Assembly (NCBI GenBank): GCA_049516875.1
Contig: JBEKSS010000012.1
Location: forward strand, 1 to 64,000
Length of the DNA stretch: 64,000 nucleotides
Source of the DNA: Candidatus Bathyarchaeia archaeon
Lineage (GTDB): Archaea; Thermoproteota; Bathyarchaeia; Bathyarchaeales; Bathycorpusculaceae
Reading direction: 5' to 3'
In this document: positions 36,395 through 55,636 of the stretch, piece after piece
Layout of the letters: each line of letters starts with the position of its first letter
Numbering within the stretch: position 1 is the first letter of the stretch
Notes under the pieces: generated by a model
Databases searched by the model: none
The model's input: the letters and a program-made list of their open reading frames with translations, nothing else
What the model was told of the DNA's origin: nothing
Position numbers and translations under genes: made by a program

Positions 36395-36520
36395 GGGGTT
36401 TGCCGGTCATAGGGCGTGGGTTCCACCTGATCCCATACCGAACTCAGAAGTTAAACCACGTTCCGTTTCCGGTTGTAGTGTGGTCTTCGGCCATGTGAAC
36501 CCGGGAAAGCTGGTAACCCC
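36395..36520 (+). rRNA. rrf: 5S rRNA (stand-alone)
   Basis: CACCTGATCCCATACCGAACTCAGAAGTTAA core; paired ends GGGGTT/AACCCC. Confidence 0.95.
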
Positions 36521-51214: not shown

Positions 51215-53815
51215 ACGAAGAGAGTACTAGCGGTAACAGCGATGCTAGTAGTTGTTTTTTCCATGTTTTCAGTCTTCACACAGGTGAAGGCTCAAGGTGC
51301 AAGTAGTCTTAACGCGAGTAGTACTCAGTCTTCACCAGAGACTTATCCAATTTCAAATTTCACTGATTTCCAAAATGGAACGACGTTGACGGTCGTCGAC
51401 TTTGGAAATGGGACATTGGATGAAACTTTCGAGACCCTAGTCAACAAAACCGCAACTCTTAACGTTCTGAATGACGCGTCGAATCAGTCTATCTCCTTGT
51501 TCACTTCTGAACAGGAACATACGAGTTACAAAAACTCAACCCAAACAGCAATGATGGAGCAGCAGCTGCTCATGGGTTTCACATATGAAATCGCCAAATA
51601 CCGTATGCAATGGGATTGGAGCACAAATCTATGGTTACTGCAGGCTTATGTTGAGGTAGGAATCAATGTAGACATTGAATTTGGGCTGAGATTACCTGTA
51701 AACATAACTGTTGAATATCCCGAACAAATGACCATTGGTCGTAATTACACCTTCTACGCGACCATTACACCCATTGACAAACCCAATTTCAATGAGGGTC
51801 TATGCGTGTTCCAAGCGTATGTATGGGCGGAAGCTGGAGTTTGGACACCTTTTACAGGTTGGGTGGTGTATCGTGCACAGTATGGGCCTGACTATGATCT
51901 TTCACAGAGTTTTCAAACGCCTCTTGGTCACGCTATAGCGTTTCCAATTAGCCCAATATATGCGAAAGTGTTTGAGGCAGATTGGGTTTGTCCTTTTGAT
52001 TTTCTCGATATTTATTTGGGAGGTCAACCCGGATTCGGCTCAGACAGAGTTACTGCCGTGGCCAACGTAACAGGAGACGGCCAAGTAGTGGCTGGATCCA
52101 ACATAACATGGACAGCACCTGGCCAGCGTCTACCATTCACAGTGCTTGCCAACAACTTGGATCCGACGACTAGTTACGCAAATATCAGCATTTCAAATTT
52201 CAGGTACTACTTCACCAACTTCTATATGCGGTTCTGGCTGAAATTCGATTTTAATTCATGGATAGACTGGCTTACAGGCGACCCAGAGATACCTATCTAC
52301 ACTCTAGATCTTAGCTGGCTTGTCAGAAACCTCAATGGATATGTGGGGACGCATCTTGGATATCCAAACAGCGTCAACGTGGATCTATTCGTCAAGAACT
52401 ATGGTGTTCAAATAATACAGATTAACCCCTCAGTCGCGAGTATAGAAGCCACTGAATCAGCTTTATTCGAAGTTTCAATAATGAACACAGGCAGTGTTAA
52501 CGATACATTTGAATTGTCTCTTCAAGGAGTTCCAAGTGATTGGCAATATAGCTTTTCTGAGAACGATCTTAATGTGACGCCAGGAAATATGATGAAATCG
52601 CACTTTTCGATAAAACCGCCTGGAAACGTCAGTCAGGGGCATTTCTCTTACAACGTTACAGTCTCCAGCATGATGGCGCCTTTAGACGGCTTGGTCGCAA
52701 CTGATCTGAGGACTTTTGCGATTGATGTCTCGCCACGGGCTCCTCCTCAAATCCAAGTTCTTATTCCCCAAAACACAACATATGCCACCAATACCATTGC
52801 GCTCAACTTCACGATCAACAAACCTAGCGTTTGGATCGGATACAACCTTGACAACACTGGGAATATCACAGTTCTCGGAAACACAACCCTTATCGGCTTG
52901 CTCGATGGTTCTCATAACGTCGTCGTTTTCGCGAATGATAGCTTGGGGGATATGGGCTCATCCGATCTCGTCTATTTCTCAGTCCGAATTCCAATTCATG
53001 ATGTCGCCGTGATTGACGTCGTATCCTCCGCTGCTCAAGTGTTTCAAGGTGCCGTGGTGAATGTCGACGTCACCGTCAAAAACAACGGAACAGAACCAGA
53101 AACATTCACTGTCAAAGCATACTATAACACTACAGCAATAGGCACGATTAATAACGTGTTTCTCAACCCAGCCGATACTCAGATCCTTACGTTTGCCTGG
53201 AATACTTCAACTGTTACTCCTGGAGTTTATACCCTGAAAGGGGAGGCTGGCCAAGTTCCTAATGAGGTCAACACAGCTAATAACGTGAAAGTCGATGGAA
53301 CTGTGTCGATTCAAGCGCAAGCTGAAGAAAAGTTCTACGTCACAGTCAATGTGACTGACAACAAGGGAAATCCAATATCAAATGCTGCCGTTTACACCAA
53401 CCTAGAATCGAAACTGACGGACGGCGGATTTGTAGTGTTCACGTTCACAAAGGGCAACTATACGATAAACGCCTATAAACAAGGTTATCAGTCTGGATCA
53501 GCCAACGTTTACGTGGACCAGAACATGACCCTCGTCCTTGTTCTATCACCGATACCGATTCCTTCAGTAGTCGGGGGCTACTCCGTTTCTATGAAAGGAC
53601 ATAGCACAACAACACCAACTTCATTCTATCTCACTATGGCAATAATGCTGTCCGCTCTCTTCACAGCAATTAGACGCAAAACACGGAAAGAAAAAACAAC
53701 TAGTATTTTAGGAGAACGCGTTCCTTCCATCGATAGACAATGTACTTCGCAAGGTTCAGTTGTCTGTTCTTCTCTGTTTTGTCCAAACTGTAAGGCAAGA
53801 AGGAAAGCGCAGTAA
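51215..53815 (+). CDS. Large secreted/surface glycoprotein with Ig-like and CARDB domains and a C-terminal anchor
   Basis: Signal peptide, many NxS/T sites, HDVAV...V.V.VKNNG, VGGYS plus TM tail; ACG start inferred (ATG at 51242 is the alternative). Confidence 0.85.
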   Translation, partial: TKRVLAVTAMLVVVFSMFSVFTQVKAQGASSLNASSTQSSPETYPISNFTDFQNGTTLTVVDFGNGTLDETFETLVNKTATLNVLNDASNQSISLFTSEQEHTSYKNSTQTAMMEQQLLMGFTYEIAKYRMQWDWSTNLWLLQAYVEVGINVDIEFGLRLPVNITVEYPEQMTIGRNYTFYATITPIDKPNFNEGLCVFQAYVWAEAGVWTPFTGWVVYRAQYGPDYDLSQSFQTPLGHAIAFPISPIYAKVFEADWVCPFDFLDIYLGGQPGFGSDRVTAVANVTGDGQVVAGSNITWTAPGQRLPFTVLANNLDPTTSYANISISNFRYYFTNFYMRFWLKFDFNSWIDWLTGDPEIPIYTLDLSWLVRNLNGYVGTHLGYPNSVNVDLFVKNYGVQIIQINPSVASIEATESALFEVSIMNTGSVNDTFELSLQGVPSDWQYSFSENDLNVTPGNMMKSHFSIKPPGNVSQGHFSYNVTVSSMMAPLDGLVATDLRTFAIDVSPRAPPQIQVLIPQNTTYATNTIALNFTINKPSVWIGYNLDNTGNITVLGNTTLIGLLDGSHNVVVFANDSLGDMGSSDLVYFSVRIPIHDVAVIDVVSSAAQVFQGAVVNVDVTVKNNGTEPETFTVKAYYNTTAIGTINNVFLNPADTQILTFAWNTSTVTPGVYTLKGEAGQVPNEVNTANNVKVDGTVSIQAQAEEKFYVTVNVTDNKGNPISNAAVYTNLESKLTDGGFVVFTFTKGNYTINAYKQGYQSGSANVYVDQNMTLVLVLSPIPIPSVVGGYSVSMKGHSTTTPTSFYLTMAIMLSALFTAIRRKTRKEKTTSILGERVPSIDRQCTSQGSVVCSSLFCPNCKARRKAQ

Positions 53816-54184
53816 TTAGAAGACTGTGTTTGACTACAATCTTTGAAAACCACCCACCAAAACGTTAGGGCTAGGGTCGTTTAGATACCATGACGCTTCA
53901 AGACCCCTGAGCGTGCCATTTTTGCATGCCTTGGTTATACTGATGGCGTGAGATATGGTTGAACTTGATGTTTGGCATTGATGGTAGTTCGGGATTGCCT
54001 CTGATATCTCCCTAGTCTTGATGGTATTTCAGAAAGTGTTAACAGAACAAGATTGTTGTATCTGATAGTCTAACTATTAGAAGAATGACAAATGCACATA
54101 CGGCACATACCGAGCCTTGACCTTGACTCTCAATTATCGGCTAGAATCGCAGTTTTCTCGGATTATTGAGAGCGCGCGCTCGAA

Positions 54185-54480
54185 CCCGCGACGTGTGGAG
54201 CGGGAGACAGTAACCCTTAACTTTTCAGCCACTCCATTCTTCCTTGGCGATGACAAGAAATCGAGCCCTTCACAATCCCGCCGATACATCCACGCAGACG
54301 GACTCAACGGAAGAGGGCAAGCCTCAGGCTTGCCGGTTCTTGTGATGGCGAGTTTACCCAAGCATGGGACACGGCGGGCGCGGGCCAAAAACCCTACGAC
54401 GGAGAGAGCTTAACCTAGAAGGGCGCAACGCCCCACAGTGAAGTTAAGTGTTAGGTTACGTAGGAAACAAGCAGGCCCGC
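54185..54480. ncRNA. Candidate structured non-coding RNA, ~300 nt, probably minus strand
   Basis: GC-rich intergenic segment with several nested long-range helices and no credible ORF. Confidence 0.55.
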
Positions 54481-54547
54481 GAAAAACAACTCTTAAGTTT
54501 GTCATATGCATACAGATAGGTAAAACCTGAAGCAGGCAGAGCAGAAT

Positions 54548-55636
54548 TTGGACATAGAAACAAAAATCGAGCTCGTGTGCAGACCGCCAACGGAAGAAGT
54601 CATAACCCCGGAAGACTTGCGGAAGCTTTTGGAAACCGAGCAGCATCCCATAGCCTACAACGGCTGGGAACCATCGGGCCTGGTGCATCTTGGAACCGGG
54701 TTGGTTTGCGCGTACAAGATGAAGGATTTCATAGAAGCAGGAATACGGTATAAAGCCTATCTTTCTACGTGGCATGCTTGGCTCAACAATAAGATGGGCG
54801 GCGACCTGAAACTCATCAGAAAAGCCGCAGATCTCTTCAAACACTCATGGATAGCCCTGGGTGTTCCAGAAGACAAAGTCGAATTCATCTACTCAGACGA
54901 ACTCTACGATGACTTGAAGTACTGGGAAAAAATGGTACTGATAGCAAAAAACCTTTCAATAGCCAGAGTAACCCGCACACTCGAGATCGCGGGAAGACAG
55001 GAATCTGAAGCCAAACACGTTTCAGACTACCTGTACACGCCCATGCAGGTAGCCGACATATTCCACATGGAAGTTAAAATCTGCCAACTCGGCATAGACC
55101 AACGCAAAGCCAACGTCGTAGCACGTGAACTGGGCGAAAAACTCGGATGCTGGAAACCCGTGTGCGTCCATCACAGCCAGCTCCAAGGCCTCGCCAAACC
55201 GCCCGTCTGGCCCATTCCGAAAGAGAAAGAAAGAGAAATATTATCATCAATAAAGATGTCAAAAAGCAAACCAGAAACCTGCATCTTCATCTATGACCAC
55301 CCTGAGGAAATCAAACAGAAAATCTCACAGGCCTTCTGCCCCGAAAAAACCGTGGAGTACAACCCAATCCTAGAAATATGCAAATTCATAATCTTCAGAG
55401 AAAACAAAACCTTCACCATACAAAGACCAGACAAGTTCGGCGGCCCAATCACCTTCGACAACCTCAAAGAACTTCAGAAAGCCTATGCAGAGGGAAAACT
55501 GCACCCGCAAGACCTCAAGAACGCTGTCGCAGAGGAACTCGCAAGAATCCTCGAACCCGTCAGAAAATACTTTGAAAACAACAAAGAAGCAAAAGAATGC
55601 CTCAACACCGTGAAAAACGTTAAGGTAACAAGGTAA
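54548..55636 (+). CDS. tyrS: Tyrosine-tRNA ligase
   Basis: YNGWEPSG..HLG, Y..MQVAD, G.DQRK, KMSKS. Confidence 0.97.
   Translation: MDIETKIELVCRPPTEEVITPEDLRKLLETEQHPIAYNGWEPSGLVHLGTGLVCAYKMKDFIEAGIRYKAYLSTWHAWLNNKMGGDLKLIRKAADLFKHSWIALGVPEDKVEFIYSDELYDDLKYWEKMVLIAKNLSIARVTRTLEIAGRQESEAKHVSDYLYTPMQVADIFHMEVKICQLGIDQRKANVVARELGEKLGCWKPVCVHHSQLQGLAKPPVWPIPKEKEREILSSIKMSKSKPETCIFIYDHPEEIKQKISQAFCPEKTVEYNPILEICKFIIFRENKTFTIQRPDKFGGPITFDNLKELQKAYAEGKLHPQDLKNAVAEELARILEPVRKYFENNKEAKECLNTVKNVKVTR

Follow-up and report, generated by a model that had tools for sequence, protein, structure and literature searches.

A probable two-hairpin box H/ACA guide RNA with head-to-tail joined ends, encoded upstream of tyrS in Bathyarchaeia

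The present analysis concerns a small RNA gene in a stretch of 64,000 nucleotides from a Candidatus Bathyarchaeia archaeon (contig JBEKSS010000012.1; hereafter the window), in which a sequence-only reading had marked positions 54185-54480 as an unrecognised structured RNA of about 300 nt, transcribed from the minus strand and divergent from tyrS, the tyrosyl-tRNA synthetase gene. The locus encodes a real structured RNA, but on the plus strand, upstream of tyrS and co-directional with it, and the body of the RNA is 206 nt long. Judged from sequence and covarying structure, this RNA is probably, at odds of roughly four in five, a box H/ACA guide with two hairpins that directs pseudouridylation and is the orthologue, in Bathyarchaeia, of Haloferax sR-h45 and of stems II-III of Pyrococcus Pf7/Pab40 (HgcG). 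Head-to-tail joints in metatranscriptome contigs are best read as showing that it occurs as a covalently closed circle of 206 nt. The region stands above chance because blastn searches detect it, with identities of 70-94%, in 48 of 61 related genomes, and because its circular fold has a z of -3.96.

The structure was tested on an alignment (A1) of 114 distinct homologues of the body, with a hand-built set of 47 pairs. Standard pairs occupy 94.7% of the 5349 cells and changes on both sides are seen at 27 of the 47 pairs, in 246 cells; not one of 500 shuffles reached any of five measures, and sliding the partners by 1-3 columns reduced pairing to 36-45%. The proposal of a conserved, covarying non-coding RNA is thus upheld. 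The body consists of two long irregular hairpins, B (circle nt 8-95) and A (circle nt 110-198), each enclosed by a 7-bp GC helix, H5 (1-7/96-102) and H1 (103-109/199-205), respectively. The minimum free energy (MFE) fold of the window sequence as a circle recovers H5, H1, H2, H3, H4, the top of H8 and five of the six H6 pairs; the kink-turn (K-turn) region, which is non-canonical, is not recovered. A covariance model, R1, was built from A1 over 203 positions. The features of the body are as follows.

54277-54482, plus strand: RNA body of 206 nt, head-to-tail joined (circular), defined by contig joints and by the single full-length R1 match in the genome (198 bits).
54277-54283, plus strand: 5' strand of H5, the closing helix of hairpin B, starting with the 5' end of the circle; seven pairs, 100% paired.
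54290-54295, plus strand: 5' strand of the hairpin B lower stem (H6); inner five pairs 98.9% paired, two changing on both sides.
54296-54299, plus strand: 5' strand of the hairpin B pocket, AGAC (the guide may extend into GGA); A22, C23 and G24 invariant.
54300-54305, plus strand: 5' strand of the hairpin B upper stem (H7); 99% paired, with three pairs changing on both sides and two invariant G.U pairs.
54310-54311, plus strand: hairpin B K-turn, G34 A35; at least 90% conserved, directly 5' of a covarying stem (first pair GC 61, AU 45).
54312-54340, plus strand: H8, apical stem-loop of hairpin B, of variable length; 8 of 8 pairs present in the MFE fold.
54343-54345, plus strand: hairpin B K-turn, U67 G68 A69 after a 3-nt bulge; at least 90% conserved.
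54350-54355, plus strand: 3' strand of the hairpin B upper stem, from the covariation alignment.
54356-54361, plus strand: 3' strand of the hairpin B pocket, ACCCAA; U79, A80, C81, C82, C83 and A84 invariant.
54362-54367, plus strand: 3' strand of the hairpin B lower stem, from the covariation alignment.
54369-54371, plus strand: hairpin B ACA box, one nt 3' of the lower stem; A93, C94 and A95 invariant in 114 sequences.
54372-54378, plus strand: 3' strand of H5, contiguous with the 5' strand of H1 as a splint over the ligation junction, from the alignment and direct reading.
54379-54385, plus strand: 5' strand of H1, the closing helix of hairpin A; 99.6% paired, four pairs changing on both sides, each in few sequences.
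54393-54398, plus strand: 5' strand of the hairpin A lower stem (H2); 95.2% paired, four pairs changing on both sides.
54401-54407, plus strand: 5' strand of the hairpin A pocket, GGAGAGA, continuing into G54408; G126, G128, A129 and G130 invariant.
54408-54414, plus strand: 5' strand of the hairpin A upper stem (H3); 94.7% paired, five pairs changing on both sides (one UA 81, CG 30).
54417-54419, plus strand: hairpin A K-turn-like motif, A141 G142 A143 after a 3-nt bulge; A141 and G142 invariant.
54421-54433, plus strand: H4, apical hairpin of hairpin A; 88.6% paired, three pairs changing on both sides.
54439-54441, plus strand: hairpin A K-turn-like motif, U163 G164 A165; invariant, aligning with GAUGA of HgcG motif 3.
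54443-54449, plus strand: 3' strand of the hairpin A upper stem, from the covariation alignment.
54450-54453, plus strand: 3' strand of the hairpin A pocket, GUUA; G174 and U176 invariant, and UGUUA also in the HgcG/Pab40 motif 3 consensus.
54459-54464, plus strand: 3' strand of the hairpin A lower stem, from the covariation alignment.
54467-54469, plus strand: hairpin A ACA box; A193 invariant, A191 and C192 at least 90% conserved.
54475-54481, plus strand: 3' strand of H1, followed by A54482, the 3' end of the circle, from the joints and the alignment.

Four of the six pairings proposed from the sequence prove real and covarying, as complements on the plus strand. CCCGCCG/CGGCGGG corresponds to H5, in which all pairs form and two covary (pair 4: AU 69, GC 24, GU 21; pair 6: CG 89, UA 17, UG 8); CCATGC/GCGTGG is the lower stem H6, whose sixth pair (54295 with 54362) forms in 65.8% of cells; the hairpin GGCAAGCC-TGA-GGCTTGCC is the apical stem H8; and GGGCG-TTG-CGCCC is H4. 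The other two fail. In place of a terminal helix, CTTAACTT pairs locally with AGGTTAAG as H3 (TA 68, CG 28 of 100; UA 81, CG 30 of 114), and its supposed partner, 54210-54223, is promoter sequence of the RNA itself and precedes the first transcribed base. The pseudoknot ACAAGAA/TTCTTGT would join the leader to H8 and, by eye, is complementary only within the genus of the window. A T-arm-like segment, GTCGCGGGTTCGAG, is likewise not conserved even within the genus, as the sequences diverge below about position 54195. Across lineages, H8 shrinks from about 30 nt to GGC-GAAAA-GCC, a short form found in many of them, and hairpin B (A1 columns 10-30 and 60-98) carries lineage-specific changes, many sequences having a further short hairpin, AACCU...GGGCU, inserted after H5 and before the lower stem.

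In each hairpin a lower and an upper stem flank an internal loop whose strands are invariant, a tandem G.A motif sits by a 3-nt bulge, and an ACA follows the lower stem. The published archaeal H/ACA descriptor, as given in the available part of its source, calls for a lower stem of about 7 bp or more, loop strands of 5-11 nt and an upper stem of at least 5 bp (PMC2377435). Both hairpins fit it, and all their stems are supported by covariation: hairpin B has a lower stem of 6 bp (7 with U13.G92), loop strands of 4-7 and 6-9 nt and an upper stem of 6 bp, while hairpin A has 6-7 bp, 7-9 and 5-10 nt and 7 bp. An ACA box lies directly 3' of each lower stem, and a K-turn or K-loop, the L7Ae site above the upper stem, can be recognised in both hairpins at the level of sequence only, the hairpin A version having one extra A. 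The top of the pocket usually lies about 14-16 nt from the ACA box, and in hairpin B this distance, read directly, is 13-16 nt according to where the pocket is taken to start. The genome also contains cbf5 (340 bits). Its TIGR00425 match (G000:C2:125984-126960) falls into two pieces, model positions 5-70 and 70-322, set 20 nt apart, a break that may be a small cbf5 pre-mRNA intron, as known from Crenarchaeota.

It is possible to assign each hairpin a candidate target in 23S rRNA. The assembly contains no 16S rRNA and its 23S is split between contigs (model positions 16-2591 on G000 C17, with the peptidyl-transferase-loop target at the start of G000 C9); the complete rRNAs of a family member, G012, were used. 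A relaxed scan of its 16S and 23S, in which up to three further unpaired target bases were allowed, gave exactly one match scoring at least 20 for each hairpin. For hairpin B this is 23S UGGGU-UU-aga-CCGUC, where GACGG complements CCGUC and ACCCA complements UGGGU; for hairpin A it is 23S UAAC-UC-uga-CUCUCUC, where GAGAGAG complements helix 69 CUCUCUC and GUUA complements UAAC. The former is presumably the peptidyl-transferase loop at Escherichia coli U2585/2586 and the latter presumably the helix 69 loop at U1915/U1917. Two alternatives of 10 bp for hairpin B (23S GGGUAAG-UU-CCG and 16S GGUGAA-UA-CGUC) were set aside in favour of the known site of the orthologue. In Haloferax volcanii, according to the portion of the report available, the 5' stem-loop of sR-h45 makes Psi2605 and the 3' stem-loop makes Psi1940 and Psi1942, the latter requiring an unpaired UVUN (PMC7075261). 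The equivalent stretch of the helix 69 target is UCUG here and is also unpaired. The accepted sites are favoured despite modest statistics because the same sites are known for sR-h45, in the same 5'/3' order.

Several observations weigh against the guide assignment. Under strict canonical pairing, with only UN unpaired, nothing convincing was found in the genome's own partial 23S or in the G012 16S and 23S. The accepted pairings are short (5+5 and 4+7 bp) and leave five target bases unpaired, and shuffled guides equalled their scores in 5 of 300 trials for hairpin B and 19 of 300 for hairpin A, modest statistics when taken alone. The ACA box of hairpin A lies 18 nt from the pocket, or 15 nt if the UUA bulge below the CC/GG extension is discounted; spacings up to 17 are described as tolerated, whereas 19 needs the ACA (PMC7075261). 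In addition, Rfam at E up to 10 gives no H/ACA match at 53900-54800 of the window, and HgcG matches in distant relatives lie far under the gathering score of 77 bits. The atypical pairing with the targets and the failure to reach any Rfam threshold would also suit a new class of structured RNA unrelated to H/ACA, with coincidental ACA and G.A motifs. That is very improbable, as both hairpins independently show the full series from lower stem to invariant ACA, both loops complement the two sites of the Haloferax orthologue in the same order (PMC7075261), and the tyrS neighbourhood is shared with the H/ACA RNA of Nanoarchaeum equitans (PMC3491384). Of the initial alternative of "a new ncRNA class or a highly divergent known one", the first half is thus dropped, since the RNA has all the sequence and structure hallmarks of a two-hairpin H/ACA guide.

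The two-hairpin guide assignment is further informed by comparison with known RNAs, as described in the accessible parts of the cited reports. sR-h45 has the same two hairpins in the same order, with the peptidyl-transferase-loop U served by the 5' one and the two helix 69 U's by the 3' one; compared by description and not by sequence, the Bathyarchaeia RNA adds the GC closing helices, the K-turn leader and the circle (PMC7075261). Pf7/Pab40 and Archaeoglobus Afu4 (RF00064, HgcG) have a motif 3 that shares G-UGUUA and GAUGA/GUGAAG with hairpin A, although Pab40 has three hairpins against two here. In vitro, the helix 69 pseudouridine is made by Pab40, through its motif 3, and by Afu4 (PMC2584109; PMC2377435), and haloarchaeal HP1 and HP2 are homologues of Pf7 stems II and III (PMC2584109). 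By orthology, the RNA would assemble with Cbf5, Nop10, Gar1 and L7Ae, its two internal loops pairing with 23S rRNA so that uridines are positioned for isomerisation to pseudouridine; the 5' hairpin would address UGGGU-UUAGA-CCGUC of the peptidyl-transferase loop, and the 3' hairpin two alternate U's in UAAC-UCUGA-CUCUCUC of helix 69.

Other known RNAs were considered for the locus. At gathering score, Rfam matches nothing there, as had been anticipated; in the window only 5S rRNA matches, a lone gene at 36399-36518 (73 bits). The sole match in 53900-54800 at E up to 10, and thus the only trace of any other Rfam family or known ribozyme, is a chance one to Ms_IGR-2 (E 3.5), nothing relevant to the RNA, so that membership of RF00064 is not supported either. 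RNase P and SRP (signal recognition particle) RNA, both already doubted from the sequence, lie elsewhere in the genome (RF00373, C14:34820-35127, 196.6 bits; RF01857, C2:14336-14649, 156.2 bits) and have no match at the locus. ARAGORN found no tRNA in the window. A protein-coding origin was rejected: the overlapping open reading frames (ORFs) at 54117-54413 (plus), 54134-54388 (minus) and 54410-54844 (minus) have no Pfam family.

The RNA lies in a gap of 730 nt between an 857-aa ORF (51242-53815, plus strand) and tyrS. Four features flank the body.

54209-54223, plus strand: promoter of the RNA, resembling a transcription factor B recognition element (BRE) and TATA box (AGTAACC CTTAACTT); spacing kept across loci, and similar to promoters of the SRP, 5S and RNase P RNA genes of this genome.
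54246-54276, plus strand: 5' leader of 31 nt, absent from the circle, with a K-turn or C/D-like GGC-GAU-GA...GA-GCC, ending in AAU before the 5' cut.
54490-54497, plus strand: TATA-like box CTCTTAAG, most likely the tyrS promoter; by eye, kept where tyrS is adjacent and lost where it is distant.
54548-55636, plus strand: tyrS, a class I Tyr/Trp tRNA synthetase (PF00579, 2.4e-37), beginning 66 nt 3' of the RNA body.

The RNA has its own promoter. The BRE/TATA-like motif has the consensus AGTAAYG-TTTAAYTT, and in 81 of 115 non-redundant loci its TATA-like part starts 29-33 nt 5' of the first base of the leader (conserved GGCGAUGA). In the 14 loci that lack a leader, the same part starts 31 nt 5' of the first base of the circle, and transcription in these lineages must begin at, or within a few bases of, the first nucleotide of the circle. 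The SRP, 5S and RNase P RNA genes of the genome have similar motifs at 31-38 nt. At the other end, a AACTTAAAAG motif is retained, by eye, only in loci with a directly adjacent tyrS, and is most simply the TATA box of tyrS. The box proposed near 54492 is thus TATA-like indeed, but most likely serves tyrS; the promoter of the RNA lies at the opposite end.

Assignment to the plus strand rests on the position of the promoter, on base-pair counts and on the ACA and K-turn motifs. In the final alignment, standard pairs fill 94.7% of cells on the plus strand against 87.7% on the minus strand, and the plus strand shows 465 G.U against 92 A.C cells, 226 of the 465 being two invariant G.U pairs that were placed by hand; G.U pairing had been taken to favour the minus strand, a view that these counts reverse. 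The ACA boxes and tandem G.A motifs can be read on the plus strand only. It is nevertheless the case that RNAalifold energies are nearly equal (-49.0 against -47.3), that the circular MFE is slightly lower on the minus strand (-84.2 against -78.8), that G.U occurs at a few pairs of the minus strand, and that an initial tally of G.U pairs from a rough alignment (194 against 150) left the matter undecided. However, a functional minus-strand RNA divergent from tyrS is scarcely credible, since the conserved promoter sits at the other end, at a fixed distance from the plus-strand start with or without the leader, and the motif upstream of the minus strand is lost, by eye, where tyrS is not adjacent. 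About equally remote is a cis-acting leader that regulates tyrS as an archaeal analogue of a T-box, to which the shared strand, the position directly 5' of tyrS and a linkage kept across the phylum would be suited. However, a TATA-like box of tyrS itself lies between the two genes, the RNA is retained in loci where tyrS lies 200-800 nt away or was not found, it is excised as a circle, and no conserved specifier resembling a Tyr codon was seen.

The circular form is drawn from metatranscriptome contigs of four runs (X1, X2, X3 and X5), from four different studies, that fall on 54263-54482 and place the RNA in RNA libraries, bearing out the predicted transcript; the four runs have no contig cover outside these positions, which is not used as evidence. 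Head-to-tail joints occur in four contigs from three runs (X2, X3 and X5) of three studies. The joint 54482 to 54277 is present in X3, unambiguously, with 81 letters on the shorter side, and in X5; X2 joins 54481 to 54277; and X5 also joins 54474 to 54275 with CCCGCG between. A loose end in X3 runs from ...CCCGCGA into a diverged copy of the body start, the start of a relative's circle, and one contig of 254 letters goes round the 206-nt unit more than once. In the genomes the gene is single-copy or has two copies separated by kilobases, and tandem copies do not occur, so that the joints are best read as circular RNA. The runs hold only 0.05-0.08 of the sampled words, and no claim on habitat is therefore made. 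At the junction, a single uninterrupted strand, GGCGGG-CGCGGGC, base-pairs through one half with the 5' end CCCGCC and through the other with the 3' end GCCCGCG-A, and ligation would thus seal a nick in a 14-bp helix, leaving one bulged A. The cuts lie at AAU/CCC, flush with H5, and at GCGA/A, one base past H1.

This evidence has to be set against its source. The circle is read from assembled contigs and not from raw reads, contigs give no strand, abundance or ratio of circular to linear form, and RNA libraries could hold DNA. The guide may accordingly work in linear form, the joints then arising from a minor side product, from an intermediate of decay or from misassembly. Linear precursors do exist, since contig X1 spans from position 54263 in the leader into the body, and the circle of the Sulfolobus solfataricus H/ACA RNA sR109, a single hairpin of 70 nt, is described with few junction reads (PMC3326292). 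However, contigs from three studies and a diverged relative share the same joint base. The joint coincides with the point where two invariant helices of 7 bp meet along one unbroken strand, a feature that is conserved in 114 sequences and would have no role in a linear guide. A linear working form is thus unlikely, though it is the most serious of the alternatives.

With the circular reading retained, the route to closure can be outlined in part. A bulge-helix-bulge (BHB; two 3-nt bulges around a 4-bp central helix) was sought in 16 registers; the best averaged 2.03 of 4 pairs and all four formed in at most 2 of 115 sequences, and a substrate for the BHB splicing endonuclease was rejected because the central helix is absent. 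A self-cleaving ribozyme was also rejected, as the AAU/CCC and CGA/A contexts do not fit the hammerhead and hairpin rules and there is no Rfam match. RtcB is encoded in the genome (598.7 bits), while a Pab1020-type ATP-dependent RNA ligase was not found in this 97% complete genome. The ends would be trimmed to H5 and H1, flush on the 5' side and one base beyond on the 3' side, and then joined without a BHB motif. Circles that depend on BHB motifs, such as tRNA introns and pre-16S/23S rRNA, are alike in circularity and in the presence of RtcB, but differ in the motif itself. Circular guides that bear K-turns and lack a BHB, as this RNA does, are described among the C/D small RNAs (sRNAs) of Pyrococcus, Sulfolobus and Nanoarchaeum and for the H/ACA sR109 (PMC3326292, PMC3491384), and in Thermococcus kodakarensis the ATP-dependent Rnl circularises C/D RNAs (PMC9014305). 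Unlike these circular guides, the Bathyarchaeia RNA comes from a genome in which no Pab1020-type Rnl was found, and its junction is splinted by conserved helices.

Most lineages make the RNA with a K-turn leader of about 31 nt. Its start motif, NGC-RAU-GA...GA-GCN (K-turn or C/D-like), occurs in 96 of 115 loci; the first part, NGYRAUGA, is present in all 96 and a downstream GAGY in 93 of these. The first stem pair covaries, being standard in 78 of the 93 (G-C 53, G.U 8, U-A 8, A-U 6, U.G 3). Pab21, as described, provides a precedent for an H/ACA RNA composite with a C/D motif (PMC2377435, PMC4652768). As a tentative model, with a little less than even odds, it is proposed that an ancient guide for helix 69 and the peptidyl-transferase loop works as a circle across Bathyarchaeia, that its two GC helices evolved as a splint, that closure proceeds without a BHB or a Pab1020-type ligase, and that the leader K-turn is an L7Ae-dependent signal for processing or assembly. 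If true, this would be a new way to make a stable circular guide ribonucleoprotein. With junction, splint helices and leader defined to the base, the RNA offers a clean case for the study of BHB-independent circularisation. H/ACA guides, this pair of targets and circular guide RNAs, including the few-read sR109 circle, are already known (PMC3326292). A literature search found no two-hairpin H/ACA guide with conserved splint helices and its ends joined to a circle, nor the K-turn leader of such a guide or its class-wide presence in Bathyarchaeia.

The RNA is widespread in its class. A degenerate pattern of 25 letters from its core occurs at no fewer than 119 places in genome contigs, and among the 80 titles listed nearly all are Bathyarchaeota or Bathyarchaeia, the exceptions being one 'Krumholzibacteriaceae' metagenome-assembled genome and one Thermoproteota single-amplified genome. 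The former contig (L088, DATKLC010000064.1) carries the archaeal RNA with a variant leader and is probably a mis-binned archaeal contig. R1 gives one match in its own genome, matches every one of the 20 genomes sampled from the class and, outside the class, 37 of 131 genomes from the rest of the phylum at 25-55 bits. Five of 20 weaker R1 matches that were fetched overlap sub-threshold RF00064 (HgcG/Pab40) matches of 25-35 bits. In some families outside the class (L179, L180 and L181, from G183, G122 and G107, and also G145, G153, G168 and G176), hairpins A and B give separate matches on one strand with 60-120 nt between them, an arrangement that recalls the 'long spacer' between HP1 and HP2 described in haloarchaea (PMC2584109). 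In a distant lineage (L167, G167:C57), hairpin A lies inside a 12-bp outer helix (GGCAGACUGCUG/CAGCAGUCUGCC) that begins directly after the ACA box, and a closing helix around hairpin A therefore predates Bathyarchaeia. An RNA formerly without a name thereby becomes an annotatable gene, the likely guide for a pair of 23S pseudouridine sites of central function in a large archaeal class that is uncultivated and in which Rfam finds nothing, and the alignment and model could seed an Rfam family for Bathyarchaeia and, more weakly, for other Thermoproteota.

The association with tyrS also extends beyond the window. In 25 of 30 related loci, at TyrS identities as low as 46%, the synthetase gene lies no more than 1.5 kb from the RNA, and it is also found beside the RNA in 16 of 32 further loci, which include other classes with only 400 nt of flank available; in all loci compared for strand (L002, L169 and L172), tyrS lies downstream on the same strand. 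N. equitans has a single H/ACA sRNA, which is 159 nt long, forms two hairpins with two K-turns, contains two ACA motifs and is reported to lie between the tyrosyl-tRNA synthetase gene NEQ389 and NEQ392 (PMC3491384). It resembles the Bathyarchaeia RNA in its two K-turn hairpins, its two ACA motifs and this neighbour, but is shorter, has hairpins separated by the ACA alone and comes without a circle in the part of the report available (PMC3491384). The pairing of guide RNA and tyrS genes is therefore old, kept from Nanoarchaeum to Bathyarchaeia, and a literature search found no statement of its wider conservation.

Integrated elements of about 4.7-6 kb also use the gene as their attachment site, at L189 (G025:C6:129300-134600), L190 (G021:C2:146500-153000) and also G013:C84. 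These loci each contain two full-length R1 matches (134-143 bits) and a leftover fragment of hairpin B (model positions 18-86), beside which a tyrosine integrase is encoded (PF00589, 1e-21 and 1e-19); at L189 the integrase ORF begins inside the RNA fragment. The duplicated core of the attachment site corresponds to window positions 54342-54364. Five other loci (L039, L051, L076, L106 and L144) likewise have no 5' part and may represent similar integrations. The use of a guide gene in this way widens the list of small RNA genes at which integrase-bearing elements attach.

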